DNA of 64,000 nucleotides from Fidelibacterota bacterium (GTDB lineage: Bacteria; Fidelibacterota; UBA2242), in assembly GCA_049975265.1 (NCBI GenBank), contig JBNGDF010000003.1, forward strand, positions 103,665 through 167,664, read 5' to 3'. The notes beneath the pieces were generated by a model. It searched no databases. It saw only the letters and a list, made by a program, of their open reading frames with translations, and had not been told where the DNA came from. A program made the translations under genes and the position numbers. Below, piece by piece: positions 2,034-63,859 of this stretch (its first letter is position 1; every line of letters starts with the position of its first letter).

Positions 2034-2199
2034 TCGTTTTGGAAATTTAATTGTGAAAAGGTTGAATCGCAATATACGAAATGGAAACCGACAAATTTTC
2101 AATCGTCAGTTGCTCAAATTGTTCCCATCACTGAAAAAATGGAACCATTTTCGGGCTTGTGCAATTCAATTGTATGAACGATCAGGTCTGTAATTTACC

Positions 2200-47587: not shown

Positions 47588-48304
47588 TTGTTCAAGATTC
47601 CGGATCATCATTTTGCTGCGGTACCATGTGCCGCCGGTGGCACTGACAAAGAGTTTACCATTATAGAGGGCGATGCTGTCGTTATAGGCATATACCGTCA
47701 GAAAACGATTATCCGATTCCCGTAACCAATTCGTCAGTTTTTCGCCATGCCGGAGGCTGTCTTCATAACCGTAATTGCTGTCGATAAATGAAATTCTTTC
47801 GACAATGCCGGGGATTTTTTCAGTTCCATGTAGATACCCGAAAATGAAACTGCCGCCGCCGCTGTGACTGTTCAGGGCGATTCTTAAATCCTTCGACGGG
47901 AATCGAGTGGCGACCGAATCAACAATGTCGTGAATTACTACAGAACTGTTGGGATATTTACGCCGCCAGGCCGGCCAGCTTTTAAGATCGTTTTCCAAAT
48001 AAGCAACGACAATGTTGCGATCTTTAATCCGATTTCGGAGGTAACGGGTCTGGGCGGCGATATGCTGGATATTGTAATGCCAGTCGTCGCCATCCTGCAA
48101 CTGTTTGCCCATCGTCCATTCCGTGCTGTTGCCGTTGGGCAAGGCATAGAAGATTAGGAGGGTGGGTTTGCGATGTTTAATTTTCGGTGCATCAATGGTA
48201 ATTTTGACATCTTTGGGATAGCAAAAAGAGCTGATGGTGGTCGATGTACTCCGCGAGCATTGAAGACATTGTAGACCGAGTAATAGAAGGATTATGCGTT
48301 TCAT
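47375..48304 (-). CDS. Putative alpha/beta-hydrolase-like lipoprotein; last ~60 aa probably run-through after truncation
   Basis: Signal ending CLQC; NSHSGGG nucleophile-elbow-like motif; 213-nt convergent overlap with the upstream gene. Confidence 0.6.
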   Translation of the reverse strand: MKRIILLLLGLQCLQCSRSTSTTISSFCYPKDVKITIDAPKIKHRKPTLLIFYALPNGNSTEWTMGKQLQDGDDWHYNIQHIAAQTRYLRNRIKDRNIVVAYLENDLKSWPAWRRKYPNSSVVIHDIVDSVATRFPSKDLRIALNSHSGGGSFIFGYLHGTEKIPGIVERISFIDSNYGYEDSLRHGEKLTNWLRESDNRFLTVYAYNDSIALYNGKLFVSATGGTWYRSKMMIRNLEQLFDFTVDDRERWLQPENDFKRIGDPMVPGFITHAVHRQPGTIFMMTKHRIGRAADQRRNRLTKRQRSVLV

Positions 48305-48308
48305 CGTG

Positions 48309-49976
48309 CTATTTCAAATATAGCACTTTTATTGTTTTTGTGTAAGATGAATTCCTTAAACGGATGAAATACAGTCCGCTGCCGTAATTGCTGTTGAAAT
48401 TCCAGTGAATGGTATGCTTACCCCGATTTTGGACTGAATTGATAATGGATTTGGTATATTTACCATCGAGAGAGAAGATAGATATTTCCGTATGGGCAGT
48501 GACAGGAATCTGATAATGAACCGTTAGGATGGCATTGAAAGGATTCGGAAAACAGGAGATGAGCAAATAATCATCGGGAATGTCTGGATTTTCAAAGGCA
48601 ATTCCAGTATTGACCTGGCGGGTTGAAAGTTGGAAAGATTCAAAACTGTTTAAAAAGTGTAAGCGAGTGTTAACCATACCGGGATGATTGGAATTTTGCG
48701 GATATTTGAAACCGGCATGTGTCATCGTCCCGGTATCCAGAATATAAACCAGTTTATCGGTAGTCAAGATACCGTCACTTGAAATTCTGACATGGCAGTC
48801 ATCGTCCAGATAGATGGCTATATACCCGGGATGATCAGCGGCACCATACATACCGCCAATCCAGCGGTTTTCAAAATAATCAGAATTTGAATACAAGCGA
48901 GGGATAATTATCGATTGGGGAATGTTTTCGTTACCCACAGACTGTTCCAGACGGCCGTACCACGCATTGGTAGCACTGCCTGTTAATTTTGTAATAACGA
49001 CTGCACCATCATACGCAGCTGATTCATCAGAGCCATTAATCGTCAAGGTCTGATAGCGAAATTCGGGTTGGACCTGAAAAACAGCCTTGAGAACATTTTC
49101 GGGATGCAGAACCTGCCGATTGGTAAGATCGTACTCCATCTCATCTATCAATTGATGCAAGCAAAGGTTGGTAAAAACAACTGGTTCATACGGAGTACAG
49201 TGAATAACCGATTTGTCGGTTTTATGAATAATTGTGACCGAACCAATTCCGTAGACCTTTCCTGTCCGGTCAGGCTTCAGACATAACGCCGTTTTTTCAT
49301 CGATGCCGATCCCAACGAGATCTTCATGATAATCCTGGATGCGACGGGCCAGCATCGGAACCAGGCGACCCAGCCGACCGCGGGGATGAAAATGTGAATC
49401 AGTTATAACGCCGGGCAGAATTTGCAGAAAATCATCTTCAAACTGCATGTCCGTGGAATATGGATTGTATGCTGCGTCTTCGGGGTAAAGTGAACCGTAC
49501 TGTGCGGAAAATGATACCGATCCCTCAATTGCCAGACCGGCACTGGTGCCTCCAATAACACCGCCATTTTCGAATACATAGTGAATAGCATCTTCAACTA
49601 AAGTGTTTTTCCAGGTTTTCACATAATCCCATTGATCACCGCCCTCGATAAAAATACCTTTTGCCGAGATAAGCTCTTTAAAGATCGCTGAATCGTTCGC
49701 GGCTGTTCTTGTTGCAATTTGCAATGAGTGGGAAGCCGGATCCGCACCGCAACTGATGAAGTCGTCCGCGTAGCCTTGGGCGACACTGCTGACGTCGATA
49801 TTAATTATTTTTCCGCTGTCAGCCTGCTGCACAAACCAGATATAGACTGGTGCCACCCATGACCCCGGATAATAGGCATCGCTGCCACCGCCCATCATGA
49901 GCAGCGATCCCTGCGGAAATAGAAGCACCGGAATCAAAAGAATCAGAATTGAAAACAATCTAAAGATTTTTTTCAT
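48309..49976 (-). CDS. Secreted cyanophycinase-like S51 peptidase with T9SS C-terminal sorting domain
   Basis: Signal peptide; EGGDQ, GTSAG (Ser), TDSHF..RGRLGRL (His), GIDE (Glu); C-terminal FPNPFN...SGLYFIRL...KVLYLK. Confidence 0.85.
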   Translation of the reverse strand: MKKIFRLFSILILLIPVLLFPQGSLLMMGGGSDAYYPGSWVAPVYIWFVQQADSGKIINIDVSSVAQGYADDFISCGADPASHSLQIATRTAANDSAIFKELISAKGIFIEGGDQWDYVKTWKNTLVEDAIHYVFENGGVIGGTSAGLAIEGSVSFSAQYGSLYPEDAAYNPYSTDMQFEDDFLQILPGVITDSHFHPRGRLGRLVPMLARRIQDYHEDLVGIGIDEKTALCLKPDRTGKVYGIGSVTIIHKTDKSVIHCTPYEPVVFTNLCLHQLIDEMEYDLTNRQVLHPENVLKAVFQVQPEFRYQTLTINGSDESAAYDGAVVITKLTGSATNAWYGRLEQSVGNENIPQSIIIPRLYSNSDYFENRWIGGMYGAADHPGYIAIYLDDDCHVRISSDGILTTDKLVYILDTGTMTHAGFKYPQNSNHPGMVNTRLHFLNSFESFQLSTRQVNTGIAFENPDIPDDYLLISCFPNPFNAILTVHYQIPVTAHTEISIFSLDGKYTKSIINSVQNRGKHTIHWNFNSNYGSGLYFIRLRNSSYTKTIKVLYLK

Positions 49977-51457
49977 TTGAACACTCTGTAAATGGGGAAA
50001 CGATTTTTTTTATCGATACTCTCTCGAAAAAATGTGTCGGAGAACAGGCTGTACATCATCGAAGGTTCAAGGAGGAGTACCACTTTCCAGGGAAATTTCT
50101 GTTCAACGGGGATTAACAATGATCCCTTTTCCACGGTTATAGATTCAGGCTTCTGAACTTCGCTAATGACCCGGTTTTCATAACGATTATAGACGTCGTC
50201 AAATTCCGTTTCAAACCGAATATATTTAACTGCTTCAAGCTCAATCTGTCTGCCTTTTTTAAGTGTTTTATATTCAATCGCATGTCGATCCAGAAGGGGG
50301 GTAAACACATCAATATATTCACGGGGGATTAGGTATTTTTCCGGCCGGCGAACGCTGTTTTTGACAATTCGCCGATGCATGAAATTTGCCGTTTTCACTC
50401 TGATTGTCTGATCTGTTTCTTTATCAATGACGTTAACATCGTGAACTGAACCGGGCTGTGATCCCCAGAAATAGTTCGTCGGAATAAAATCTTGCAGGGT
50501 TGCTTTCCGGGCATTTTCGACGATTTGGATGTCATGTTCATATCTTTCGGAAGCGTGAATAAACTGGTCGAAAATTGTTAGATAAGCCTCGATTCTCTCC
50601 GTCAGGTTGGCATCCGGATTGGCAGCATTTCGAAAAATCCCGGATTCGATGATAAAAGACAGAACACTATAGGCACCGATGCCGTTGCGTCCGTCGTCCG
50701 GCTCCAGAGTGCTGAAACGGAGTTCATCATCCGGTGGAAGACCACCGACATAATAGCGGGTGTAATTGATATTTTTCTCATGCATTACCGGTTTGATTCG
50801 ATCAATCCATTCAACACCGGTCTCGTAAAGACATTGTGAGTAAAGCGGATTATTGGCGCAATCCATCATGATCAACGGCCATTTCTGCCAGCCGTGGTCA
50901 GCGTAATCTTTATTATCCCGCGTGAATTCATGACAATCGATGGCAACGTGAGGCATGATCTTCCGAGCCGTTTCGTGAAGAGTCTGGATTTCCGGTTGTG
51001 AAAGCAGGCGATGATCGCGGTTAAGGTCCATATCGTTGGCATTCCGCCGCTGATTGTGTTCTGCTCCATCGGGATTCACCATTGGCATGATCCACAAATC
51101 AACATAGTCGGGCAGATAGGCAGGATCTTCTTTTATTTTTTTAATCAGATAAATTAGGGCATCTTTGCCGGCTGGTTCGTTGCCATGTTGCTGGGCATAG
51201 AAAAACAGTTTCAATTTTTTCAGTTGATTATTGTGAAACAGATGAACCAGATGAAGAGATCGTCCCTCAACCGATTTTCCGGCTTCAGTCAATTCAATAA
51301 AACCGGGTTTCTCAATTGCGGTTAAGTAATTTGTTAATGTCTGATAATTAATTGGTTTCTTGATATTTTGATAATTGGAAGGAATCTGACCATTGAGCGG
51401 ACAAAGAGTAAGCCGCAGGATCAGCAAAGAGATTATCAGATGGTGTTTATTGATCAT
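49973..51457 (-). CDS. M14-family zinc carboxypeptidase, exported
   Basis: GKSVEGR, QQHGNEPAG, PMVNPDG, RRNANDMDLNRD, DCHE; signal peptide. Confidence 0.88.
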   Translation of the reverse strand: MINKHHLIISLLILRLTLCPLNGQIPSNYQNIKKPINYQTLTNYLTAIEKPGFIELTEAGKSVEGRSLHLVHLFHNNQLKKLKLFFYAQQHGNEPAGKDALIYLIKKIKEDPAYLPDYVDLWIMPMVNPDGAEHNQRRNANDMDLNRDHRLLSQPEIQTLHETARKIMPHVAIDCHEFTRDNKDYADHGWQKWPLIMMDCANNPLYSQCLYETGVEWIDRIKPVMHEKNINYTRYYVGGLPPDDELRFSTLEPDDGRNGIGAYSVLSFIIESGIFRNAANPDANLTERIEAYLTIFDQFIHASERYEHDIQIVENARKATLQDFIPTNYFWGSQPGSVHDVNVIDKETDQTIRVKTANFMHRRIVKNSVRRPEKYLIPREYIDVFTPLLDRHAIEYKTLKKGRQIELEAVKYIRFETEFDDVYNRYENRVISEVQKPESITVEKGSLLIPVEQKFPWKVVLLLEPSMMYSLFSDTFFRESIDKKNRFPIYRVFK

Positions 51458-51484: not shown

Positions 51485-52903
51485 TCAACTACCTGGTATG
51501 GTTTCATCATCGTTGATTTTCGGCGCCATGGTAATTGTGGTTATTCCGAATACCATCAGGATTACCACTGATATATAATTCATAAATGCATAAGGCAGAT
51601 ACGCAAATGTGGATACCCCAATGGTTCCGGTAATGTAGACTCCGGCCATGCTCCAGGGGATCAGGGGGACGATTATTGCCCCGGATTCTTGGATAATGCG
51701 GGATAAATTTTTTGCCGCCAGGTTTTTCTTTTTATAAATCGGTGCCAGCAATTCGCCGGGAATGATCATTGACAAATAAGAGCTTCCGGTAACAAGTGCC
51801 GTGGCCAGTGATGTGATGATGGTAGTGGCAACCAAACTCCAGACTTTATCGGCAAATTTCATGACCCGGTCCAGAAGAGCATTCAATAAACCGGTTTTTT
51901 GCATAATACCACCAAAAGCGAAGGCAGTGAAAGCCACCAGTTGAGTTTCCATCATGCTCATCATGCCGCCTCTTGAAAGCAGGTTATCAACTAACGGTAC
52001 GCCGGTGTGCGCGGGATATCCGCTGTTCAGTGCTTTGCTGATCACAGCAATTGATTCATGCTGGAAAATGATGCTTAAAAATACAGCGATGAATGACGAT
52101 AACAACATCCCGGGAATAACCGGTTTTTTCGTAAATGCGCAATAAAAGACAATAATAATTGGCAGTAATAACAGAATATTAAATTGAAAACCGTTTCTTA
52201 AGGTTGTCATAATTAAGGTGATATTGGCTGATTCAACAGTATCGGGTTGGTATTTCAGTCCGATAAAGAAGTAAAAAACTAAGCCAATCAACCATGCCGG
52301 TCCCGCCGACCAGATCATGTGTTTGATATGGTCAAAAAGATTTGATCCGGCAGCGACCGGGGCCAAATTTGTTACATCTGAAAAAGGGGACATTTTATCA
52401 CCGAAATATGCACCTGCAACAATTGCACCTGCAGCTGCTCCAAGTGGGATTCCTTGAGCCATTGCAATCCCAATAAATGCCACTCCAAGTGTCCCGATCG
52501 TACCCCAGGAAGTACCAGTAGCAATTGATGAAACAGAACAAACAATGCAGGCCGTCACCAGGAAAAACTTGGGTGAAATCAGTTTCAGTCCGTAATAGAT
52601 AATGAGCTGTATTGTACCAGAACATAACCATGAACCAATCAGAATACCGACACAGATCATAATCAGCAATGCGGGAAGTGCTTTATGAATACTTTCAACA
52701 ATACCATCCTGCATTTCCTGCCAGGATAATCCCAGATAAAGAGCAACGCATCCTGAAATTACCGCCGCGCATACCAACAGAACCTGAGGTTTGATCTTAT
52801 AGATACCATAACCAACAATTAGCAGCAGTGCCATAGCCAGAATTGGGATTAGCGCGACAATAATTGTTGGTTCGGATTTTCGTTTTCTTTTTCGCTTTGT
52901 CAT
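51485..52903 (-). CDS. NhaC-family antiporter (family includes amino-acid antiporters)
   Basis: GTSWGTIGTLG, GAYFGDKMSPFSD, SRGGMMSM, LIPW; start moved to ATG 52903. Confidence 0.9.
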   Translation of the reverse strand: MTKRKRKRKSEPTIIVALIPILAMALLLIVGYGIYKIKPQVLLVCAAVISGCVALYLGLSWQEMQDGIVESIHKALPALLIMICVGILIGSWLCSGTIQLIIYYGLKLISPKFFLVTACIVCSVSSIATGTSWGTIGTLGVAFIGIAMAQGIPLGAAAGAIVAGAYFGDKMSPFSDVTNLAPVAAGSNLFDHIKHMIWSAGPAWLIGLVFYFFIGLKYQPDTVESANITLIMTTLRNGFQFNILLLLPIIIVFYCAFTKKPVIPGMLLSSFIAVFLSIIFQHESIAVISKALNSGYPAHTGVPLVDNLLSRGGMMSMMETQLVAFTAFAFGGIMQKTGLLNALLDRVMKFADKVWSLVATTIITSLATALVTGSSYLSMIIPGELLAPIYKKKNLAAKNLSRIIQESGAIIVPLIPWSMAGVYITGTIGVSTFAYLPYAFMNYISVVILMVFGITTITMAPKINDDETIPGS

Positions 52904-52920
52904 TGCTTGTTCCCGTGAAT

Positions 52921-52964
52921 ACAAAGAACAGACCTCCCGATAAGGGATACCGGAAGGCCTGTCC
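52921..52964 (-). terminator. Internal terminator or stabilising hairpin in the locus
   Basis: Minus strand ACAGGCCTTCCGGTA-TCCCT-TATCGGGAGGTCTGT (15-bp stem with G-U pairs) followed by TCTTTGT. Confidence 0.65.
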
Positions 52965-52980
52965 AATACTTCATTGATTA

Positions 52981-54024
52981 CTAAAGTTGAATCAGATTTT
53001 CAATCATAACGATGCCTTCGGTTTCTGTAGCGATCCAGATAACATCATCATAAATTTCCAGCTCAATCAGGACGTCTTCCGGTAAAGCTCCACCAGTTGA
53101 TTCAGTGGTGAATTGCTCAAATGTCATATCCGGCAGAATTTTCAAAAGTCCGCCACCTGACAAGGCACACCAGATATTACCGTATTTATCGGCTTCCAGA
53201 TCGTTCATGGGATATTTTAAAGGCTCAATATCCGTTGAATCATAAGTTGCTGCAACAGTCGATCCTGTAATTTTATACAGGTTATTGTTACCAGCATCAG
53301 TAACCCAGGCGTTATCATCAGGATCGAGGGTCAGTGCAAAGGTGTACTCTCCCGACAGCGCTGATACTTCAGTCCAAGTTGTTCCAGTTCGATAGACGAC
53401 ACCGTAAAAGGTACAGATCCACATTCTGCCTTGTGAATCTTCCTTCAAATCATATATTTCCGGACGACCGGTTGACAAATTGATATCGTCCGCTGTCCAG
53501 AGGGTCCAGTTTGCACCATGATCGGTCGAAACATAAATCCCCTTCACCGTTCTGTCACTGATGTAAATATTCCCGTCGGAATCGGTCTGGACACTACGAG
53601 TATAATCGTTAAAGCAGGTATCGACCTCGCCGGAGGTACCGTCGGCTTTCAGATATCCAACGCCATAATGGGTACAGAACCACTTGGTGTTCTGATTGTC
53701 TACAGCCATATAGAAAACACGATCTTCCATATTGCCGAGACCGATATCATCGGCGTTGTAGACAGTCCAGCTCGCCAGATCATTGGATAACTTGGAGACA
53801 TTTGCAACGCCGGTGGCCGCGTCTTTCTGACCACCAAACCAGATGTTTCCGTTGTTGTCAAAATCGATACAATATACGGCATTGTAAGGCAGATCGCTGT
53901 TTGTGTTGTTAAATACCGTATAAACAGGCTCTTTCACTTCATCTTTGTTATCATCGCCATCGCAGGACATGAACGGCAAAGACATCAGTGCAAGTGCCAC
54001 GAGCAAAATAGTGAGTTTTTTCAT
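52981..54024 (-). CDS. Beta-propeller lipoprotein
   Basis: Lipobox FMSC after AAGGAGG RBS; repeated D..GNIW / D..GRMW blade motifs. Confidence 0.8.
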   Translation of the reverse strand: MKKLTILLVALALMSLPFMSCDGDDNKDEVKEPVYTVFNNTNSDLPYNAVYCIDFDNNGNIWFGGQKDAATGVANVSKLSNDLASWTVYNADDIGLGNMEDRVFYMAVDNQNTKWFCTHYGVGYLKADGTSGEVDTCFNDYTRSVQTDSDGNIYISDRTVKGIYVSTDHGANWTLWTADDINLSTGRPEIYDLKEDSQGRMWICTFYGVVYRTGTTWTEVSALSGEYTFALTLDPDDNAWVTDAGNNNLYKITGSTVAATYDSTDIEPLKYPMNDLEADKYGNIWCALSGGGLLKILPDMTFEQFTTESTGGALPEDVLIELEIYDDVIWIATETEGIVMIENLIQL

Positions 54025-54065
54025 AATAACCCTCCTTAATTGGTTAATTTTCCATCTCACGTTAT

Positions 54066-55052
54066 TTACATTCGAAAGTTTATTCCAAACTGATGAACAT
54101 TATTCAGATACTGTTTTCCCGTGAAAGCGTAGGAAATTGAGCTGTTTATTCCCGAAATCCGGATATTCAGACCACCACCCAGGGAGAAATTCGTTACATC
54201 ACTGTTGAGTGTGTAGGCTACTCGTATAAAGGCAATATCGGAGAAATTGTATTCACCACCAATGACCAGTCTTTCGGTGTTATCGGATGGAACAATAACA
54301 TCGATGACGGTAGTCAGGTTGGGCAATGGATCCAAAGCAATTCCTAACTGAAGTACCTCCGGTAACCGAAAGCCCGGTGTCAATCGTTCTATTCTTGGAT
54401 TATCTTTCTGATTCCGGGCCAATTCTTCATTAATTCGATCTGTTACATCGTCACCTTTCAGAGAATCAATTTTTACCCCGATGTTGCGGATGGCCATTCC
54501 CAGCCGAAGATTCAGAAAATCCGTGCGATAAATAGAGCCAATATCAAATGCAATCTGTCCCGCTGACTCGTTCCAGATATATTCGTAAGCATATTTTGCT
54601 GTCAGCCCGAAAGAGAACCGGTCAGTCATTCGCCTGGCATAACTGATTCCGCCAGCCATGTTCCCCGAACTGTAATATTCATCAGTTCCATCCGGTTCAT
54701 AGACTGTAGTGATTTCCATATCATCCATATAGAATGATGTAAAAGATAAGCCGATAGCGTTATTCGAACCGATTTGCATTGCCATGCCAACGTATGATAA
54801 TTTTGTGTCGAAAAACCAATTAGTCTGTGACAAATTTATATCGAATTTACCGTTGTTGATTGTTCCGGCAGGATTCCAGTAAAGAGCTGCTGCACCATTG
54901 GCAATTGAAACAGCTGCACCACCCATTGCCGCTCCCCGCGGTTCGACTGGTATTTGCAGAAAGTTCATTCCTGATTGTCCTAGATTTCCCTGAGCAGTCA
55001 GAACATTGATCAGGCTTAGAATCAATATTAATAGTATTTTAAATATTTTCAT
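54066..55052 (-). CDS. PorV/PorQ-family outer-membrane beta-barrel
   Basis: FLQIPVEPRGAAMGG, ALYWNPAG, FSFGLTAK, FDIG; C-terminal beta-strand. Confidence 0.85.
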   Translation of the reverse strand: MKIFKILLILILSLINVLTAQGNLGQSGMNFLQIPVEPRGAAMGGAAVSIANGAAALYWNPAGTINNGKFDINLSQTNWFFDTKLSYVGMAMQIGSNNAIGLSFTSFYMDDMEITTVYEPDGTDEYYSSGNMAGGISYARRMTDRFSFGLTAKYAYEYIWNESAGQIAFDIGSIYRTDFLNLRLGMAIRNIGVKIDSLKGDDVTDRINEELARNQKDNPRIERLTPGFRLPEVLQLGIALDPLPNLTTVIDVIVPSDNTERLVIGGEYNFSDIAFIRVAYTLNSDVTNFSLGGGLNIRISGINSSISYAFTGKQYLNNVHQFGINFRM

Positions 55053-55065
55053 GATTCAATCTCCT

Positions 55066-56970
55066 TTACCTGATTACCGCAAAACGGCCGATTTTATCAC
55101 CAATTTTTGACTCAACATGAAAGAAATACATACCCGAAACAATCGGGCGCCTTTCCGAAGTCAGCAGATTCCATTCTTCCCGGCCATAATCACCGGTATG
55201 GTCAATTGTCTGAACAAGGTCTCCATCGATAGTAAATATTCGGATAGTACAAGGGGAGGGAAGATTGGTAAATGCAATATTCCGGATTGGTTCGCCAAAA
55301 ACCGTATTCCCAAGCCGGGATTCATCCCAGGGTGCTGAGACCACGTATGGATTTGGGACGACTCGGATTTTATCCAAATCTGCTTTCGCCTCAGCCGGAA
55401 GTGTCTGGGGCTTGGCCTGTTGGGTACTGGGTTGGTTCAGGATATTGTTGATATCGGCCAATTTCAGCGATTCTATCAGATTTCCATCGACGACTTTATA
55501 GGTTGTCAAATTGTAGTAATAGTTGAATCCGTTATATACATTCTGATCAGTAAATTCATACTTATCTTCAATGACGGTGGGATCGTTTTTATAGATCATC
55601 GGAATGGTATCCAGCACATCCCAGCTGCGGAGAGTAGGATCGGTTGTGCGGTACAGAATATACCCTTCGAGGTCATTTGCTGGCGGATTCAGTGATTCAT
55701 TCAGATAGGTAACATCAATTTCATTACTCCATGAAAGTTGAACCTGCTGATCAGCGACATTGACTACCAGTTCAGGCACCGGTGGTGGAATGAGGCTGTT
55801 GAAGCCGTCAGCATAGTGTGCAAGCAGATTGTCAGTTACCTCGAGAAGATCAGTCTCATTATCACCAACAGTACAACCTACCCAGATTTCAGCCTTTTCA
55901 CCGGGTTGAATAGAGAATGGACCGTTGCAGATATAGGCGACCATAGCACCACCGATCAGATTGCCGCTTGCGTCCCTAATCCGGGTTGTAGCCGGGTCAT
56001 CGAAATGCGTCCCATTGATTGGATTATCACCCAGGTGAAAGTAATCATCAACATTCAGAAGCGGGTGTCGATGAAAAAAGGAGGTATCGCTCTTCATGAG
56101 ATACCAACTGACCGAATCCCAGAATGCACTGTTAACGGCCACTTCATCAATTGTGACATCAATCCAGTGCCAGTCAGTGATTCCCAGATTATTCGGAGTT
56201 TTCAGGAAAGTTATTCCTGATAGAAAAGGATCGTCTTCATCCCATTCATTAGAGTAATTGTCCGAATCATAGAAATAGACCGTTTCTCGGGATTTATCAA
56301 AATTGATACAGTCGTCCGCCCATTCGTTGTATTCATTTCCAATACCACCAATATCCAGGTCGGAGTAGAAGTTGAAATACATGCTGTCAAGAGCGAAGCT
56401 GTTCTGATTCTCAATTTCGAATTTCAGGATGATGAATTTATCTGCGGTTGGTAATCCCCAGGAATAAATCGTCTGATAGACCCGGATATTCATCAGTTTA
56501 TCTTGTTCTCCATTGTTGGCATAGCGCCAGTTTGTTGAATCGCTATACGCGCAGTAGCTGTCCTGTTGAGACATAAAAATTGGATTTCCGTCATTATCTT
56601 TTATAGGCCACCCCGATTCCGGCCAGGTTTCCGGATTATCACTCATGGCAATTTCACCATTGCCGGCATCAAATCCGCCGATAGCATCAAATTCCTCGTA
56701 ACGGCCATCGGCCGCACTGATCACATTTACCGGTTGACCGATCATCAGACATTGGCGGTACATACAGATGTGACCGGAATTGATTGGATATTCCAGTGTT
56801 TTCTCAAATTGCCCACCATAGGGATAAAACTGACCAATGTTTGTTGTAAAATAACCTACTTTACCGACATTATGAGTCCCGAATACCCGATCCTCCAGGC
56901 CGGCGAAAACCGGATGAATTAAAACAAAGGTGAGTAAAATAAGAACAAATATATTAAGTGATTTCTTCAT
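55066..56970 (-). CDS. Surface protein with T9SS-type C-terminal domain (putative substrate-binding partner of the TonB receptor)
   Basis: Signal peptide; C-terminal IRVVPNPY..IAFTNLP..CTIRIFTIDGDLV..WNL...SGMYFFHV..GRFAVIR. Confidence 0.8.
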   Translation of the reverse strand: MKKSLNIFVLILLTFVLIHPVFAGLEDRVFGTHNVGKVGYFTTNIGQFYPYGGQFEKTLEYPINSGHICMYRQCLMIGQPVNVISAADGRYEEFDAIGGFDAGNGEIAMSDNPETWPESGWPIKDNDGNPIFMSQQDSYCAYSDSTNWRYANNGEQDKLMNIRVYQTIYSWGLPTADKFIILKFEIENQNSFALDSMYFNFYSDLDIGGIGNEYNEWADDCINFDKSRETVYFYDSDNYSNEWDEDDPFLSGITFLKTPNNLGITDWHWIDVTIDEVAVNSAFWDSVSWYLMKSDTSFFHRHPLLNVDDYFHLGDNPINGTHFDDPATTRIRDASGNLIGGAMVAYICNGPFSIQPGEKAEIWVGCTVGDNETDLLEVTDNLLAHYADGFNSLIPPPVPELVVNVADQQVQLSWSNEIDVTYLNESLNPPANDLEGYILYRTTDPTLRSWDVLDTIPMIYKNDPTVIEDKYEFTDQNVYNGFNYYYNLTTYKVVDGNLIESLKLADINNILNQPSTQQAKPQTLPAEAKADLDKIRVVPNPYVVSAPWDESRLGNTVFGEPIRNIAFTNLPSPCTIRIFTIDGDLVQTIDHTGDYGREEWNLLTSERRPIVSGMYFFHVESKIGDKIGRFAVIR

Positions 56971-56988: not shown

Positions 56989-59520
56989 TTAGAATTTGAA
57001 ATTTAGACCGAGGTATATAATGCGCGGCATACCCCAATTCAGCGGATTTGCGGCATATTCTTTTGTCCGACCGATCATTTCATCGGGTTTACCTGTATAG
57101 GGATCAACACGAACAACATTTCTCCGATCGGTCAGGTTTTTAATCTCCAAATAAGGTGTGATGCTCATAGTGTTGAATAATTTTAATTGATAGTCCATTT
57201 TCAGATCCAAAGTCCAGTTTTCAGGCAGTCGTTTGTTATTGATTTCATAGGGCTCGGTGACACCGCGAATACCTTTTGTATAGGGCAGACCGCTGCCGTA
57301 CTGGAATAGTAGGGTTGTTCTGAAATTGAAAAATCTGAATATCCCAGTTGCATTGACGGTGTGCCGTTGATCAAAGTTCAAGGGGAAAAATTTAAGTGTC
57401 TGGCGGTTGGCTTCTTCAACGCCAACCCGTTCAAGAGGTCCGGAGCTACTACCTTCGGCAACAGCATATGTATAGGCGATTTCACCGGTCAAATGAGTAC
57501 CATATATTTTCCGAAATTGAAATTCAATGCCATTATTGTATGCAAAATCCTCATTGATATGAAGCGTAAAGGTTTCCCACCAGTCCGGATTATCACCGGC
57601 AAAGAAGGTCCGTGTTCCCAGCAGATTGGTAATCTTTTTACTATATACGGAAATTTTTAAAAGATAATTATCGAACAACTGCTGGTTCAAGCCGAATTCA
57701 TATGTGATGGTTTTTTCCGGTTTCAAATCACCGTTGCCGTAGCGACCATTTCCATCTTTTAAGGAGATCAGGATGTTATCCTTATAGTCGATTTTGCCAT
57801 CGGATTTTGCATCATAGCTGAGGGGGGGATTATCGTCAGACTGAGACTTGTAAAGAATCTCATAGTCGGGACGCTGAAAGTAGTGTCCGTAACCGAAGTG
57901 AAATACTGTTTTGTCACTGACTGGATAGGATGCTGCCAGCCGGGGACTGAGTTGGGTGTGAACTTTTGATTTTTTATAACTCATGGTGTTCCCGTTTACT
58001 GCATCGAACGGATTTTCCCAGTAGTGCGTATTGGCTGCTGCTAAGTCAAAGCGTAGACCGGCACTGATGATGATACTTGAGAAATTCAGTTTGTCTTGAA
58101 TATAGGCAGCAGCTTCATATGGATTTCTGGTGTAGTAATCCATTTGGTGATTGGCATAATAGGGCGGATTGACATAAAACCGGTATATCTCGTGCTGTTT
58201 GAAATAGACGCCCGCTTTGATTTCATTGGATGAATTTGCCTGCCAGAGGACATCACTTTTAATCCCCAATGTTTTCTGCTCATGTTCTTCATAGTCATTG
58301 ACATAATTTAAAGTATAGAATTCTTTGTTTTCATCCCGGGCATATGCAGCACTCAGGTCACTATAATCATAGTCACCGGAATCGTAATGATATTGATTAA
58401 AATGTACATTTACGCTATAATAAAGATTTGAGCGGAGAGTATGTGTCATTGATAGATTGGAGATTTGAGAATTTCTACGTGGTTTCCACCACATCATGTC
58501 CGGAATATAACGCCAGCTATGGTAATAATTCTGATGAATATGGTCAGAAATGCTGGCAGACAGGCCGAGCTTGATGTTGTTGATATGGCGGTCGCTGATT
58601 TTGACAAAATAATTCTGATCTTTACGGAAACCGAAAGGATTACCCATGGCATCCAGCAGGTAACTATCCCGATCATCAAAGGTTGTTGTGAAGAGAAAGT
58701 TTGTTTTTTTCGAAAAGAGTGGTCCGTTTAATCCGAACCGGATGATATTCCGGTTATAATTTTTACTGTCTGTCTCAACCCCGACCTTCGATGATTTTAT
58801 ATCAACATTTCCGTTCAGGTGACTGCTGCCTTCGCGGGTGGTAATGTTGATAATGCCACTCAGGGCATTTCCATATTCAGCACTGTACGTGCCGCTGATT
58901 ACCTGCATTTCGGCAATGGCATTTAGGTTGATGATTTCCGAGGAGGATATATCTGCAAATTGAGGAACAATCACGGCAATCCCATCAACCATATAAGTGA
59001 TCTCTCCCGAACGACCACCCCGAAAATGAAGTCCGTTCCGGCTGACGACACCGGGTTGGGTTACCAATACATCACTTATTGTCGTCGTTGGCAGGGTTTC
59101 GATATCTTCGGAACTAACGCTGTGAGTTGTGGCGCCAATATCCTGTTCAATGATTCGTTTTTGAGCGACGACTACCACTTCATCCATATCAAGAACTGTT
59201 GCCTCCAGCGGGAACTGAACAGTTGCGATCCGACCTGCAAACACCTCGACATTCTCGATCTTCATTGGTTTGTATCCCATCATTTCACAACGGACGTTGT
59301 ATCTTCCCGGAGGAACTTGTAGAATCACATAATTTCCATTTTTATCGCTGGCGGCACCCAGTGAACTGTTTTCGATCAGAATATTTGCACCGACAAGAGG
59401 TGTTGTCTTTTTGCTATCAAAAACAGTCCCGGTAATTTTTCCGTAGTTTGCTGCCTGAAGGGAGAAAACCGAGAAAATCAGCATCATTAAACACCTATTT
59501 CTCATTGAAAAATTAAACAT
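56989..59520 (-). CDS. TonB-dependent outer-membrane receptor
   Basis: N-terminal carboxypeptidase-regulatory-like domain, plug HFRGGRSGEITYMVDG, SAEYGNALSGIINITT, LKPEKT, terminal Phe. Confidence 0.93.
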   Translation of the reverse strand: MFNFSMRNRCLMMLIFSVFSLQAANYGKITGTVFDSKKTTPLVGANILIENSSLGAASDKNGNYVILQVPPGRYNVRCEMMGYKPMKIENVEVFAGRIATVQFPLEATVLDMDEVVVVAQKRIIEQDIGATTHSVSSEDIETLPTTTISDVLVTQPGVVSRNGLHFRGGRSGEITYMVDGIAVIVPQFADISSSEIINLNAIAEMQVISGTYSAEYGNALSGIINITTREGSSHLNGNVDIKSSKVGVETDSKNYNRNIIRFGLNGPLFSKKTNFLFTTTFDDRDSYLLDAMGNPFGFRKDQNYFVKISDRHINNIKLGLSASISDHIHQNYYHSWRYIPDMMWWKPRRNSQISNLSMTHTLRSNLYYSVNVHFNQYHYDSGDYDYSDLSAAYARDENKEFYTLNYVNDYEEHEQKTLGIKSDVLWQANSSNEIKAGVYFKQHEIYRFYVNPPYYANHQMDYYTRNPYEAAAYIQDKLNFSSIIISAGLRFDLAAANTHYWENPFDAVNGNTMSYKKSKVHTQLSPRLAASYPVSDKTVFHFGYGHYFQRPDYEILYKSQSDDNPPLSYDAKSDGKIDYKDNILISLKDGNGRYGNGDLKPEKTITYEFGLNQQLFDNYLLKISVYSKKITNLLGTRTFFAGDNPDWWETFTLHINEDFAYNNGIEFQFRKIYGTHLTGEIAYTYAVAEGSSSGPLERVGVEEANRQTLKFFPLNFDQRHTVNATGIFRFFNFRTTLLFQYGSGLPYTKGIRGVTEPYEINNKRLPENWTLDLKMDYQLKLFNTMSITPYLEIKNLTDRRNVVRVDPYTGKPDEMIGRTKEYAANPLNWGMPRIIYLGLNFKF

Positions 59521-59545: not shown

Positions 59546-60397
59546 TTATTCAGAAATGGTTATATCTTTGGATAAACGTTCCAGATTTGTGATCATCTTT
59601 TCGGCTTTTTCTCGATCCTGCATCGCACACTCAGTCGAGATGGCATTGATCAGCACTGATACAGCTGCGATTGAATTGGTGTACAGGAGATTTTCACTTT
59701 TCACCACCAGAGTTTTATCAGCATAAAAACTCGCTGGAGCCGCTGGTTTATTTGTTATCGCTATTACCTTGCTTCCTTTTTCATGGGCCACTTTCGCCAG
59801 CTCAATTGTTTCAGTCGAATAGGGTGGGAAACTGAAAACAATCATCAGATCTTCTTTATTGATTAATAAGGCTTGTTCGAGAAAAGTTGTAAAATTGTGA
59901 TTATAACAAATGGCATCGATACCGACCTGCATTAATTGATAAGCAAGAATTTGCGACAGGAGGTAAGAAATCCCCAACCCGGCTGTATACACCCGGTGTG
60001 CATGATTAATTAATTCGGTGGCTTCCTTGAAATCTGAAGCATCGATTATCTGTAAAGTTTCATTAATGTTCTTGATGTCCTGATTTGCAACTCTTACCAG
60101 CAGATTAACTAATTCCGAATCGTTAATCAGGGGAAATCTAGCATTATTTTTTAATTGAGATTGAAGACTGTTCGCAACGGTTTCGCGGATTTCACTGAAT
60201 CCTGAAAAACCGACACTTTGTGAAAAACGTACGACCGATGCAACGCTGGTGCCAGTGGCCGTGGCGATCTCGTGAACACTCATAAAGGGAATTTTGTCCG
60301 AATTCTCAATGAAGTAATCAGCGACTTTTTTTAAGTTTTTTGATAAATTAGAATAATATTCACGAATTTGAGCTCTGATTTCAGTTGAATTCATCAT
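59546..60397 (-). CDS. MurR/RpiR-family transcriptional regulator (HTH + SIS)
   Basis: LSKNLKKVADY..SVASVVRF..GFSGF; SIS GLGIS, FSFPPYS, IAIT; ATG overlaps the upstream stop. Confidence 0.93.
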   Translation of the reverse strand: MMNSTEIRAQIREYYSNLSKNLKKVADYFIENSDKIPFMSVHEIATATGTSVASVVRFSQSVGFSGFSEIRETVANSLQSQLKNNARFPLINDSELVNLLVRVANQDIKNINETLQIIDASDFKEATELINHAHRVYTAGLGISYLLSQILAYQLMQVGIDAICYNHNFTTFLEQALLINKEDLMIVFSFPPYSTETIELAKVAHEKGSKVIAITNKPAAPASFYADKTLVVKSENLLYTNSIAAVSVLINAISTECAMQDREKAEKMITNLERLSKDITISE

Positions 60398-61800
60398 GAC
60401 CATCCCATGATAAAAGGTGGAACTAATAATAGAAATCCGACCAGTAGAAAAATGATTTCCAGTGGTAGTAGCCATTTTGCCCATTTTTCCCAGGAAATCC
60501 CTGACAGTGTTAATACTCCAATCGTGATTGCTGAGGTCGGCACAATCATATTACTGAAACCGTCACCGAACTGAAATGCCAGTACAGCTGTTTGCCGGGT
60601 CACACCTACGAGGTCAGCAAGTGGAATCATAATCGGCATTGTCAAAGCCGCCTTGGCGCTTCCTGAAGGGACGAAAAAGTTGATGATTGAATGAACGACG
60701 AACATTGCCTGTGATGCAATGATTGGATGAAGACGATCGATTTTATTTGCCAGTGAGTAAAGCATCGTATCGATAATCCGGCCATCCTCAGCAATGATCA
60801 ATATTCCCCTGGCCAGAACAATAATAAGCGCGGTGCTGACCATGTCTTTGGCACCCGCAACAAAGGCATCCGTGAATTCCCTGACAGATAATTTTCCGAC
60901 AATGCCGATCACAATGCCAGTCAGAAAAAACATAGCACAAATCTCCTCGATGTACCATTGAAATTTTAGGACACCGTAAATCATCCCGATTATACCGGTC
61001 GCAAATGTCCAGAGTGCAAATTTGTGACGTCTGGAAATCCCTGAAAAATTTTCCAGATCTCTCATATGCAGATTCTGACGTTTTTCTTCATCCATGTCAA
61101 AGGTGATACTCTTTTCCGGATGTCTTTTAACTTTCGCAGCATACACCATTACGAATGCAATGGCAATCGCGGTACAGATTACCCAGCAGATCAACCGGTA
61201 ACCAATTCCAGAAAAAAGTGGCAGGTCTGCAATTTGCTGTGCAATGCCGATGGTGAAGGGATTCAGAAAAGCCCCGGCGAATCCGGCACCGGCGCCCACG
61301 AACGGAATGGCAACACCAACCACAGAATCGTAACCCAGTGCGAGGGTAAGAGGGACGAAAATAAGGATAAAGGGGATAACTTCTTCACCCATTCCAAAAC
61401 TGCCACCACCGATTGAGAATATCGTCATAAAGATTGGGATGTACAGAATCTCGATAATTCTGGAGCGGCTATGGGCTTTGGCAACCGCTTTGATCGCGGC
61501 ATCGATGGCCTTGGTTTTTTCCAATATAGCAAAGACACCACCGACAATCAGCACAAAACCAACGATCAGCGCTGCACTTTTATCGGTAAATCCCCGGATC
61601 GGCGCTTTCAAAATTGCCCAGATACCTTGAGGATTGGGGGAAACCGGGTGATAAGAGTCTGCAATAACAATTTCCCGGCCATTCAGCTCAGTTCGATCAT
61701 AATTACCGCTGGGAATGATATATGTTAATATCGCCGTAACGATAATAATTGAAAATATGAGCAGGTATGTATTGGGTGCTTTAAGTTTTCCTAGTTTCAA
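60394..61800 (-). CDS. YfcC / basic amino acid antiporter (ArcD-like) family transporter
   Basis: PNTYLLIF, IPSGNY, GMGEE, NPFTIGIAQ, PSGSAKA, AFQFGDG; TTG start overlapping the cyanophycinase stop. Confidence 0.9.
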   Translation of the reverse strand: MKLGKLKAPNTYLLIFSIIIVTAILTYIIPSGNYDRTELNGREIVIADSYHPVSPNPQGIWAILKAPIRGFTDKSAALIVGFVLIVGGVFAILEKTKAIDAAIKAVAKAHSRSRIIEILYIPIFMTIFSIGGGSFGMGEEVIPFILIFVPLTLALGYDSVVGVAIPFVGAGAGFAGAFLNPFTIGIAQQIADLPLFSGIGYRLICWVICTAIAIAFVMVYAAKVKRHPEKSITFDMDEEKRQNLHMRDLENFSGISRRHKFALWTFATGIIGMIYGVLKFQWYIEEICAMFFLTGIVIGIVGKLSVREFTDAFVAGAKDMVSTALIIVLARGILIIAEDGRIIDTMLYSLANKIDRLHPIIASQAMFVVHSIINFFVPSGSAKAALTMPIMIPLADLVGVTRQTAVLAFQFGDGFSNMIVPTSAITIGVLTLSGISWEKWAKWLLPLEIIFLLVGFLLLVPPFIMGWS

Positions 61801-62681
61801 TATATTACACTCCTTTTGACCATATCGAAGCGCTGCCCGGAAGTGAGAATATGCATTTTTATTCCGACACAAGAAAGCTGGTTTGCTAGGTCGGATTCAA
61901 TATGAGTTGCTTTTGATGCATCATAGACAATAACCGCATGTTCTCCAAAAACGCGAAAGGTATTATCCGGATTAACGATAATTGCTGTGGATTCATCAAT
62001 TCCAATTCCCAGAAGTTTCGGATTTTCCAGAACGAGCGAAATTAATCGGTTATGACGTTTGCGGGTGATAAAGTGCTGATCGATTATTGCGTTCTCAATC
62101 AGCCCGAATCCCGGAGTTGTGACAATATTGCCTTTTTGAATGGTATAAAATGAGCGGGTCGAATCCTGATTAATCAATTCGTCGCCAATAATCATAATTT
62201 TACTCATTACTGCCGCGCCGGCACTTGTTCCGGCGATTACGGCGCCATTGTAGTATCGTTCTTTGATCGCAGACAGAAGACGTGTTCCGTTTAAATCTGC
62301 CGTTAGTCGGCGCTGGTCTCCGCCTGAGAAAAAGAGTATATCGGCTTTTGAAATCTGATCAAGAACATCATCAGAGTTAGCTGAGTCATGAACAACATAT
62401 AAAAAGCTGCAGTCATTAATGCCGAGTTTTTTAAATTGTCCGACCTGATACTCCGCCGTGGTAACAGGACAGCTACTGGCATTGGGAATGACGATGACTT
62501 TTGGTTGAGCATTATTTGATAGCGAGATCATCTTTTCCATGAGATAATCCGGTCGATTACCACCACCGATAATAAATAAATGGCCTGTTGGTCTATCCGG
62601 TTTTGAACAATGACTTAATGATAATATAACAAACGCGAAAATGAACGAATATCTGCGAAATTTAAATACCATAGTCAGCAC
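61797..62681 (-). CDS. cphB: Cyanophycinase (peptidase S51), predicted lipoprotein
   Basis: FIIGGG, FFSGGDQ, AGTSAGAA, IDQHF..RKRHNRL, GIGIDEST; lipobox-like LSHC. Confidence 0.9.
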   Translation of the reverse strand: MLTMVFKFRRYSFIFAFVILSLSHCSKPDRPTGHLFIIGGGNRPDYLMEKMISLSNNAQPKVIVIPNASSCPVTTAEYQVGQFKKLGINDCSFLYVVHDSANSDDVLDQISKADILFFSGGDQRRLTADLNGTRLLSAIKERYYNGAVIAGTSAGAAVMSKIMIIGDELINQDSTRSFYTIQKGNIVTTPGFGLIENAIIDQHFITRKRHNRLISLVLENPKLLGIGIDESTAIIVNPDNTFRVFGEHAVIVYDASKATHIESDLANQLSCVGIKMHILTSGQRFDMVKRSVIY

Positions 62682-63767
62682 TTACTTTTTGATTAATTCC
62701 CAGAGAATCCTGGCGCTGTTTATTAAATCCTCGACAAGAATAAACTCGTTGTTGGCATGTGGATTTTGGGCGCCGATTCCAATATTTATCGTGATTATGC
62801 CCTTTTCATTCAATGAATTTGCATCGCTGCCTCCTGCAGAGACAATGGGTTCCGGTTTTAGGCCAACGGCCAGCAGAGCATTGGTGATACGTTGAAACGT
62901 AAATGATGATTCAGGGACTTCATAAGGTTTAAAATCCCAGTGCGATTCAAACTCGACAGTTGCGTTTTCAGCACTGGCCTGTTTAATGAATACATCTTTA
63001 ATTTCTTTGATTTTCCTGTCGACCTTGGGAATTTTTAATGAACGCACTTCACCTTCCAGTTCCACTAGTTCTGGAATCACATTGATGGCTGTACCACCGT
63101 TAAATTTTCCGATGTTGGCGGTTGTTTCATGATCAACACGTCCAAGTTTCATCGTCGCTATCGCTTTCGCGGCAACCTGGATTGCACTTATCCCGTTTTC
63201 CGGATGTATTCCGGCATGTGATGCTTTCCCGTGAATTTTTGTGGTGAATCCTTTTGCTCCATAAGTCTTATTAATAAATTTTCCGGGTCTTAGCGATGAA
63301 TCAAATACAAAACCGTGTTTGATCTGTTCCGGCAGAACCAGAAATTGAGAACCAAAAACGTCCAGTTCCTCACGGATTGTAAATGCAATTGTAAAATCTT
63401 TAATAGGAACATTGTTGGTGAATGCTTTTTCCAGACAGAATAAAATTGTGGCAATTCCGGCCCGGTTATCTGCCCCTAATATCGTGGTCCCATCGGATGT
63501 AATTCTGTCATCAGTTACGATCGGTTTGATATTTTTGGTGCTCCGAGCGGTATCCATATGGGATAGAATAACAAAATTTCCACCATTGCCAATTCTGACC
63601 TGCAAATTACCGGAATTTCCGTTAGATGATACGCCAGCCCGATCTTCACTGGCTGATAAGTTAAGTTCATTGAGGAATGCCTGAATATAATGGTTGACCG
63701 GGGCTTCCTGTTTAGAAAGGGCATCGATTTTAACCAGTTCCAGAAACAGTTCAATCAGACGGTTCAT
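62682..63767 (-). CDS. M20 family metallopeptidase, peptidase T-like
   Basis: SHMDT, SDGTTILGADNRAG, REE, GKASHAG, ETTANIG, GGSDAN, C-terminal H..NE; start 63767 or 63782. Confidence 0.9.
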   Translation of the reverse strand: MNRLIELFLELVKIDALSKQEAPVNHYIQAFLNELNLSASEDRAGVSSNGNSGNLQVRIGNGGNFVILSHMDTARSTKNIKPIVTDDRITSDGTTILGADNRAGIATILFCLEKAFTNNVPIKDFTIAFTIREELDVFGSQFLVLPEQIKHGFVFDSSLRPGKFINKTYGAKGFTTKIHGKASHAGIHPENGISAIQVAAKAIATMKLGRVDHETTANIGKFNGGTAINVIPELVELEGEVRSLKIPKVDRKIKEIKDVFIKQASAENATVEFESHWDFKPYEVPESSFTFQRITNALLAVGLKPEPIVSAGGSDANSLNEKGIITINIGIGAQNPHANNEFILVEDLINSARILWELIKK

Positions 63768-63801
63768 TGCTGTTTGTTCCATAAATGAAAACCTTATTAC
63801 G

Positions 63802-63859
63802 AATGTATAAAAATACGTAACATTTATTACAATATAGTTGATATATTGAGTCAAATCAA
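63802..63859 (-). promoter_or_regulatory. Putative promoter and operators of the cyanophycinase locus
   Basis: Minus strand TTGATT-17-TATATT (63859-63831), followed by GTAA-N6-TTAC palindrome (63817-63830) and ARG-box-like AATGTATAAAAATACGTA (63802-63819). Confidence 0.5.

Follow-up and report, generated by a model that had tools for sequence, protein, structure and literature searches.

A cyanophycinase-like protein with a half-deleted second S51 copy and a type IX sorting tail, in a likely cyanophycin-scavenging cluster of Fidelibacterota

We analyzed a stretch of 64,000 nucleotides from a Fidelibacterota genome (GenBank assembly GCA_049975265.1, here G000; contig JBNGDF010000003.1, positions 103,665 to 167,664 of the forward strand), called the window below. 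Its minus-strand open reading frame (ORF) at 48309-49976 encodes a cyanophycinase-like protein of 555 amino acids. The anatomy of this protein is confirmed, real and well supported: a leader, an S51 peptidase domain, a middle module, and a C-terminal domain (CTD) of the kind that sorts cargo to the secretion system of type IX (T9SS). AlphaFold2 modeled the whole chain with a predicted local distance difference test value (pLDDT) of 93 and a predicted template modeling score (pTM) of 0.80. The architecture is not due to chance, because 1574 relatives were found among the 7997 candidates scored, query coverage is at least 90% in every one of the best 120, and 107 of these 120 have a CTD-type Pfam domain; source names among the relatives include Calditrichota and KSB1. 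Conservation is counted below over 119 aligned relatives (120 were listed, and one near-duplicate was omitted). A hydrophobic 9-mer is present in 105 of the 109 relatives with a leader of at least 12 residues, and inspection of the sequence, together with this hydropathy, points to the Sec leader of T9SS type-A cargo.

The N-terminal domain matches PF03575 (E 5e-9; 36.5 bits against a cutoff of 23.9) and thus belongs to peptidase family S51. In an alignment to the Synechocystis cyanophycinase 3EN0, S145, H195, and E227 fall on the Ser-His-Glu triad of CphB, and HFHPRGRLGRL (residues 195-205) lines up with its Arg-rich segment, in agreement with an earlier, sequence-only reading of the window that had picked out this motif set and a cyanophycinase-like S51 protein. 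Passages of PMC3235067 name Gln101, Asp172, Gln173, Arg178, Arg180, and Arg183 as critical in CphB, with Thr in place of Gln173 in CphE; the counterparts of these six pocket residues are Q115, D193, S194, R199, R201, and R204. Ser145, His195, Q115, D193, and R201 are conserved in 119/119 relatives and R199 and R204 in 118/119, and the position equivalent to Gln173 is Ser or Thr in all 119. In structural comparisons by VIA, the domain superposes on 7UQV with Z 28.1 (root-mean-square deviation, or rmsd, of 1.9 A over 249 residues) and on 3EN0 with Z 27.3 (2.1 A over 253 residues); the top folds are cyanophycinases (Z 27-28), far over PepE (Z 13-17). Judged by these residues, the 555-amino-acid protein is likely to hydrolyze cyanophycin.

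The region between this domain and the tail had been put at about 190 residues and explained as either a degenerate second S51 domain or a polymer-binding module. The folded module is shorter, about 150 residues (309-457), and structure prediction followed by Foldseek, as the earlier reading had proposed, favored the first explanation. Residues 296-460, folded alone, gave a pLDDT of 95.5. In Foldseek, the isolated module found 7UQV (E 5.5e-9, TMq 0.63) and 3EN0 (E 1e-7), with good matches only to cyanophycinase folds; among 48,161 chains compared by VIA, 7UQV (Z 13.5; rmsd, 2.1 A over 140 residues) and 3EN0 (Z 12.7) came first and the next chain had Z 6.4. The evidence on the fold of the module is that of these isolated-module searches and not of the whole-model ones. 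A new or polymer-binding fold was rejected given the matches to CphB folds; the module may have an additional binding role.

The 140 aligned module residues cover positions 7-268 of the 7UQV chain, so the module runs from the first strand straight into the C-terminal half. Some 110 to 120 residues are absent, and by segment comparison the absent part includes the nucleophile elbow. Leu, Ile, Val, or Met occupies the position of the catalytic His, and the middle arginine was matched by eye to an Asn-Arg pair (N370 in 119/119 relatives, R371 in 118/119). The module is a degenerate second S51 copy, half of it deleted. Long-form relatives of 660 to 690 residues keep the entire dead copy. A profile of the module, made from 54 sequences, found 318 representatives at an E value of 0.001 or less; in the 146 that were examined, a script labeled 43 long and 48 short, the remainder being fragments, and two of those labeled "short" have a single S51 domain and nothing more, the profile matching its C-terminal half. 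Plain single-domain S51 proteins of 281 to 282 residues that the profile finds are P0235 (E 4.8e-10) and P0244 (E 1.9e-9). In a tree (LG+G4) of 143 catalytic domains, the short CTD-bearing forms fall into one group (42 rows; SH-like approximate likelihood ratio test [SH-aLRT], 99) and all tandem forms separate from their CphB-type neighbors (100); the tree is a quick one with no resolution at its base, and several of its script-assigned labels are wrong (partial matches as "long," truncated ORFs as "single"), for which reason the 7 changes counted on it are disregarded.

What might such a remnant do? When residues 22-294 and 303-460 were submitted to complex prediction as separate chains, the score was 0.93, versus 0.01 for the best control. 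Among solved complexes, 116 of 157 come up to this value, as do 2 of 215 mismatched pairs; because our own alignment was used, these numbers apply here only roughly. The runs have at least 93% of contacts in common, with a partner pLDDT of at least 87. The predicted interface pairs equivalent segments (164-170/338-339, 197-210/362-380, 226/391, 244-259/408-429, and 264-280/431-446), sets strand 267-274 antiparallel to 434-441, and includes residues 197-202 of the Arg-rich loop. It is thus predicted to be a pseudo-two-fold built solely from the part of the module that was retained, with the half-copy taking the place of the usual dimer partner. CphB itself forms a homodimer. One of the titles that PMC9239234 cites places the PepE active site at a dimer interface.

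The tail matches TIGR04183 over residues 476-551 (37.4 against a cutoff of 23), the check proposed for it earlier, and PF18962 (31.7 against 27). By VIA it superposes on the PorU CTD with Z 10.8 (rmsd, 2.4 A over 87 residues) and on the mirolase CTD with Z 10.1 (2.1 A over 77 residues), both among other Ig folds of similar Z. With 86 TIGR04183 matches over the cutoff in G000, the tail is a generic export tag in this host. G000 also encodes SprA (2094 amino acids; 824 bits against 200), 12 PorV-like proteins, and PorU (NF033707, 695.6 against 420, with its His-Cys dyad), which are among the components expected in a host of type-A cargo. Type-A tails use a general PorV shuttle according to passages of PMC12618676, and hence the PorV-family barrel encoded near the enzyme need not serve it. 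The PorU-like sortase that had been read in the same window is real, but the window holds only the first ~700 codons of its gene, which is a housekeeping one lying 46 kb from the 555-amino-acid gene and outside its cluster; as a dedicated partner it was rejected, being that distant and one of 4 C25 genes. Nor is T9SS routing the novel export route that had been supposed, the tail being generic and a cyanophycinase with a Por domain being described in passages of PMC6243061. From its sequence features, the 555-amino-acid protein is likely to be exported to the surface.

Table 1. Features of the 555-amino-acid protein, of the gene cluster upstream of it, and of the PorU gene (positions in the window)
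Feature	Position	Strand	Evidence
Predicted Sec signal peptide, residues 1-21	49914..49976	-	basic N terminus + hydrophobic helix; model helix 2-19
S51 cyanophycinase-type domain, intact-looking, residues 22-292	49101..49913	-	HMM, 3EN0 alignment, fold match, conservation
Catalytic His + Arg-rich substrate segment, residues 195-205	49362..49394	-	3EN0 alignment, conservation
Second S51 copy, dead and internally deleted, residues 309-457	48606..49052	-	model, Foldseek, VIA
T9SS type-A C-terminal sorting domain, residues 467-555	48312..48578	-	TIGR04183, PF18962, VIA
M14 zinc carboxypeptidase with N-terminal leader; candidate beta-Asp-Arg hydrolase	49973..51457	-	PF00246 E 4e-18
NhaC-family transporter, also resembling Arg/Orn antiporter ArcD	51485..52966	-	TIGR00931 462 > 370; NF052307 355.8 < 650
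Beta-propeller protein, lipoprotein-like leader	52981..54060	-	PF07494; relatives bear PF18962 (CTD)
PorV/PorQ-family barrel	54066..55052	-	NF033709 183.7 > 90
634-amino-acid protein of TonB receptor/partner/PorV cassette; candidate SusD analogue	55066..56970	-	no Pfam/NCBIfam match
TonB-dependent receptor	56989..59520	-	PF00593, PF07715, PF13715
RpiR/MurR-family regulator	59546..60484	-	PF01418 + PF01380
YfcC/DcuC-family transporter (putative basic amino acid antiporter family)	60394..61872	-	PF03606 E 3e-110; NF008611 386 < 500
Second, single-domain cyanophycinase (CphB type), lipoprotein-like leader	61797..62681	-	TIGR02069 198.5 > 126.6
PepT-like M20 peptidase; second candidate dipeptidase	62682..63854	-	TIGR01883 257.3 < 274.25; PF01546, PF07687
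Housekeeping PorU sortase gene, 5' part (1337 amino acids, runs off window); outside cluster	1..2102	-	NF033707

The 555-amino-acid gene comes last in a series of 11 genes that all point the same way and begin at 63854 (Table 1). The stop of the M14 gene overlaps the start of the 555-amino-acid gene, and residues H91, E94, H176, E271, R137, N146, and R147 of the M14 protein are invariant in 11 of 11 cluster copies. No family name for the 634-amino-acid protein came from the ESM Atlas. The C-terminal ~110 residues of this protein are common to nine other G000 proteins, and with ten proteins sharing the domain the cassette itself is generic, which weakens it as specific evidence. Most of the ten (C3, two each in C5 and C8, C15, C18, C23, C25, and C47) have a TonB receptor gene on one side and a PorV-family gene on the other, in a repeated, SusC/D-like cassette whose partner protein has no Pfam or NCBIfam model. 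Promoter and terminator scans gave chance levels (45 versus 43 and 18 versus 16, respectively). A 17-pair hairpin with a T tail at 52926-52964 on the minus strand overlaps the start of the NhaC gene and could attenuate the last cluster genes, the overall scan being at chance.

Nine of 201 genomes of the phylum contain the family, in two of them split or partial. Gene order is identical across all 11 genes in G000, G105, G033, G081, and G065, and G069 differs by lacking YfcC; G144 has both cluster ends on separate contigs, G093 has NhaC only, on a short contig, and G063 has an orphan copy. A CphB over the cutoff lies 12 to 15 kb upstream of the 555-amino-acid gene in these six cluster genomes. 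None of the six intact-cluster genomes, G000 included, has a cphA over the cutoff, and synthesis of cyanophycin by the host was rejected on that ground; cphA is over the cutoff in G063 and partially matched in G093. Cyanophycinase genes clustered with a transporter, without cphA, are one mark of a cyanophycin utilization locus (CUL), as summarized in passages of PMC10206079; iadA (or iaaA) within the cluster is another. Since iadA and iaaA are absent from the cluster, we file it as a variant that works like a CUL. An arginine deiminase was searched for and not found, and one arginase-family gene was found. The cluster, which the earlier reading had missed, is likely a cyanophycin-scavenging locus, and it is the best evidence we have for the substrate.

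The short-form loci with flanks of at least 7 kb number 31 (L001 and L043 were dropped as copies of L039, and G000 was not counted). They have a PorV gene at 16, a receptor at 15, M14 and NhaC at 10 each, YfcC at 8, and CphB at 4, in 10-kb flanks that miss the far end of the cluster. Position 227 is Asp or Glu in all 16 cassette-linked short-form copies, and it is Tyr or Ile in 12 of 15 orphan copies, which are kin. Among long-form relatives, L095, L096, and L110 adjoin the cassette of TonB receptor, CTD protein, and PorV, with an ornithine aminotransferase gene added at L110, and the Bacteroidota-type L112 and L113 adjoin true SusC/SusD, CphB, and YfcC. A protein of ~380 residues with a CTD and of no known family occurs in eight such clusters (L046:11826-12992, L047:3187-4371, L063:4439-5704, L076, L082, L085, L095, and L096); the G000 cluster lacks it and has the propeller instead. 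Tandem paralogue pairs were seen at L047:9953-13323 and L056:984-4311, the T9SS tail in the first being replaced by a domain with no CTD match. P0128 (793 residues) fuses a YfcC-like N terminus to the short-form enzyme and may be a deletion or assembly artifact. G000 has a YfcC paralogue elsewhere (C10:4402-5877, L128; 79% identical), adjoining an enolase-family-like ORF and a receptor-like ORF.

We think it probable that the 555-amino-acid protein is an exported serine exopeptidase that clips beta-Asp-Arg from cyanophycin made by others, with an intact-looking S51 domain and a dead half-copy predicted to stand in for the second subunit. One can picture the following course. The protein would leave the cytoplasm by Sec, be recognized by its CTD, and pass the SprA translocon, as its tail and the host genes suggest. 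The half-copy, homologous by fold search and predicted to pack against the live domain, would brace the Arg-rich loop; it keeps only the interface-forming parts, so that one chain would supply a pre-formed dimer. Ser145-His195-Glu227, residues present in the protein, would then cut the poly-Asp backbone of the polymer. Going by gene order, the products might be taken up by the TonB receptor cassette, with the CphB-type lipoprotein trimming them, after which the M14 or M20 peptidase could split them to Asp and Arg, with YfcC and NhaC as putative importers.

A number of observations weigh against this reading, beginning with the substrate. Against the cyanophycinase equivalog TIGR02069, the protein has an E value of 4e-29 but only 101.8 bits, under the cutoff of 126.6, and it is therefore filed as cyanophycinase-like and not as an equivalog member. 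Cluster genes are absent from 15 of the 31 short-form loci. Searches found no iadA (TIGR01975) in the 9 genomes and no iaaA (PF01112) in G000, a genome 95% complete. Perhaps, then, the enzyme is active and exported and the locus harvests some other beta- or iso-aspartyl peptide, such as damaged protein or polyaspartate-like or other nonribosomal polymers, with cyanophycin a minor substrate or none. The equivalog score would fit, as would the lack of iadA or iaaA to complete the known pathway, the scores of the two transporters below the ArcD and YfcC cutoffs, and a gene at L095 for an enolase-family enzyme resembling o-succinylbenzoate synthase (OSBS); passages of PMC9239234 describe the same-fold S51 members MccG and PepE as acting on different substrates. 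On the other hand, 118 to 119 of 119 relatives retain the three arginines along with Q115 and D193, a CphB over the cutoff sits in the same cluster in six genomes, and the SusC/SusD, CphB, and YfcC genes at L112 and L113 are the layout that passages of PMC10206079 describe for cyanophycin scavenging. We regard another substrate as unlikely.

Activity can be questioned as well. The triad acid position, 227, is Asp or Glu in just 88 of 119 relatives. The nearest match in both sequence and fold, 7UQV, carries the title "pseudo-CphB" and has the same motifs when aligned, and this protein was reportedly found inactive; the motifs are therefore no proof of hydrolysis. The 555-amino-acid protein could accordingly be imagined as a pseudo-enzyme, a surface binder of cyanophycin granules or oligomers that feeds the TonB receptor while its CphB-type neighbor, a second cyanophycinase at hand, does the cutting. 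Loss of the triad acid in 31 of 119 relatives, including 12 of the 15 orphan copies, would agree with this, yet Ser145 and His195 never vary, every cluster-linked copy keeps the acid, and the protein itself has Glu; moreover, the third residue varies among active S51 enzymes and is Asp in MccG (passages of PMC9239234). A pseudo-enzyme seems to us quite improbable. The copies with Tyr or Ile at the triad acid and no cluster genes (L033 of G063, L054, L057, L058, L062, L064, L066-L072, L074, L075, and L078) group on the tree where sampled and are possibly repurposed or dyad enzymes; G063 also encodes cphA and cphB.

The export that we favor raises the matter of the secretion motor. GldM was not detected in G000, no GldL passed the cutoff in 42 genomes of the order, and GldK is weak (72.6 against 350), all in searches run without a positive control. 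An active enzyme that stays in the periplasm, in a non-Bacteroidota lineage with no working T9SS and with the tail as a mere folding or anchoring domain, would account for the undetected PorL/GldL and PorM/GldM and the weak GldK, and for the swapping of the tail for other domains in some relatives (L047 and L056). SprA, PorU with its dyad, 12 PorV-like proteins, and 86 CTDs would be hard to explain in the absence of export, and we hold periplasmic retention to be highly improbable. G000, with this machinery and cargo and no detectable GldM, may have a divergent or absent T9SS motor, the controls being uninformative.

The last objections concern the half-copy. HHalign of the module against the catalytic domain is co-linear over 135 columns at a probability of 3% and E 0.013 (reversed control, E 0.21), too weak to stand alone as proof of duplication, and it was rejected as such. 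The complex score may reflect likeness to solved CphB dimers, which is the very likeness claimed, and is no proof of function; conservation at the predicted interface (0.61) does not clearly exceed that in the remainder of the module (0.54; p 0.11). Half-twins also occur without a CTD: 39 of 146 representatives were labeled short with no CTD, two of these being plain single-domain proteins, and an Acidobacteriota protein is one CTD-less short twin. It follows that the half-twin is not a T9SS-specific adaptation, and this idea was rejected as a general rule.

One could go further and see in the cluster a complete cyanophycin harvester of uncultured, non-Bacteroidota bacteria of the Fibrobacteres-Chlorobi-Bacteroidetes group, with a single-chain "one-and-a-half" enzyme in place of the cyanophycinase dimer, a 634-amino-acid protein delivered by T9SS and held by its own PorV-family barrel that acts as SusD on the TonB receptor, and the exported M14 protein as a further, undescribed beta-Asp-Arg hydrolase that makes up for the missing iadA/iaaA. 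We consider this fuller picture doubtful.

Elsewhere in the window, the convergent, overlapping ORFs at 47375-48304 (minus strand) and 46259-47587 (plus strand) both look cut at about 47573-47587, likely a deletion junction: the first, of 309 residues, matches a 359-residue protein of cluster L063 (58%) only up to residue 290 of the latter, and the second, DUF5060/apiosidase-like, ends at the same point. At 38328-41898 (minus strand), genes for a lysine 2,3-aminomutase, a sodium:solute symporter, and a GNAT acetyltransferase lie in a row and resemble the ablAB osmolyte pathway with an inserted transporter. At 17525-22357 (plus strand), a protein of 1610 residues with about 15 PKD repeats follows a FecR/Ig-domain gene and a SpoIIE phosphatase.

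If borne out, these findings would add uncultured lineages outside Bacteroidota to the organisms able to feed on cyanophycin, one of the major nitrogen stores of microbes, and the natural deletion would mark the minimal dimer interface of the cyanophycinase fold. They bring two questions within reach of testing: what enzyme cleaves beta-Asp-Arg when iadA, iaaA, and cphZ are all absent, and what the repeated cassette of TonB receptor, CTD protein, and PorV does, here with a substrate that can be named. A single-chain secreted cyanophycinase could also serve dipeptide production.

Among known systems, the structurally characterized CphB of Synechocystis PCC 6803 (3EN0, 7UQW) and pseudo-CphB of Pseudobacteroides (7UQV) have the fold (Z 27-28), triad, and pocket in common with the 555-amino-acid protein, whose middle module is a fragment of the same fold. 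They differ in being single-domain, cytoplasmic proteins, 25 to 28% identical, with no leader, twin, or CTD, and Gln173 of CphB is Ser here. CphE of Pseudomonas alcaligenes and P. anguilliseptica, as passages of PMC3235067 describe it, is extracellular, as our protein is likely to be, and likewise has a Sec leader, Ser-His-Glu, and a hydroxyl residue for Gln173; at ~420 residues it has no sorting tail, in contrast to 555 residues with twin and CTD, and our protein is not of the Pseudomonas CphE type. A CphE-like proxy at L117, not a true CphE (425 residues; Ser173/His229/Glu258), aligns with our protein in the catalytic domain only, at 28% identity, and is not matched by the module profile. 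CphI of Acinetobacter, a tandem protein of ~80 kDa with one inactive half, likewise fuses a live domain to a dead copy. Unlike the 555-amino-acid protein, it has a full-length second copy and no leader or CTD, and passages of PMC10206079 give it as intracellular.

CphZ/AotO is an M14-clan beta-Asp-Arg hydrolase according to passages of PMC9974463. The neighboring M14 protein has the Zn ligands of CphZ, its catalytic Glu, and the R/N/R site for the carboxylate, features that are general to M14; at 494 residues with a leader it is unlike CphZ. No CphZ-named chain was among 31 PDB sequence hits of the profile of the M14 protein, and the gene could not be tied to CphZ. Enzymes that split beta-Asp-Arg where iadA, iaaA, and cphZ are missing are called undiscovered in Firmicutes and Bacteroidota in passages of PMC10206079.

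The closest precedents are two. In passages of PMC6243061, Balneolaeota strain Omega encodes a 670-residue cyanophycinase with a Por secretion domain (CYPRO_0608) and a single-domain partner, and Salinivirga has the same pair. CYPRO_0608 and its homologues in Salinivirga cyanobacteriivorans resemble our protein in combining an S51 and a Por domain, with a single-domain S51 protein in the genome as well, and the N-terminal, GTSAG, and Arg-rich motifs of our protein's family can be made out by eye in CYPRO_0608; it is of the long form, and those passages mention neither a half-deleted twin nor a cassette of TonB receptor, CTD protein, and PorV. The CUL of strain L21-Spi-D4 (Ben Hania 2017, as cited in passages of PMC10206079) combines cyanophycinase genes with one or more transporters, lacks cphA, and follows the scavenging logic of the G000 locus. 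The latter has no iadA, having M14 and M20 peptidases instead; its uptake module is a TonB receptor with the 634-residue protein and a PorV-family barrel in place of SusC/SusD (which relatives L104 and L113 have), and its host appears to lie outside Bacteroidota, unlike that of the CUL. We found no printed account of an exported cyanophycinase whose twin is dead or truncated, although Sharon 2022, Sharon 2023, Law 2009, Ben Hania 2017, or their supplements may contain one. T9SS export of a cyanophycinase and scavenging clusters of this kind are thus already in print; new in the present locus are a twin that has lost half of itself and the interface predicted for it.

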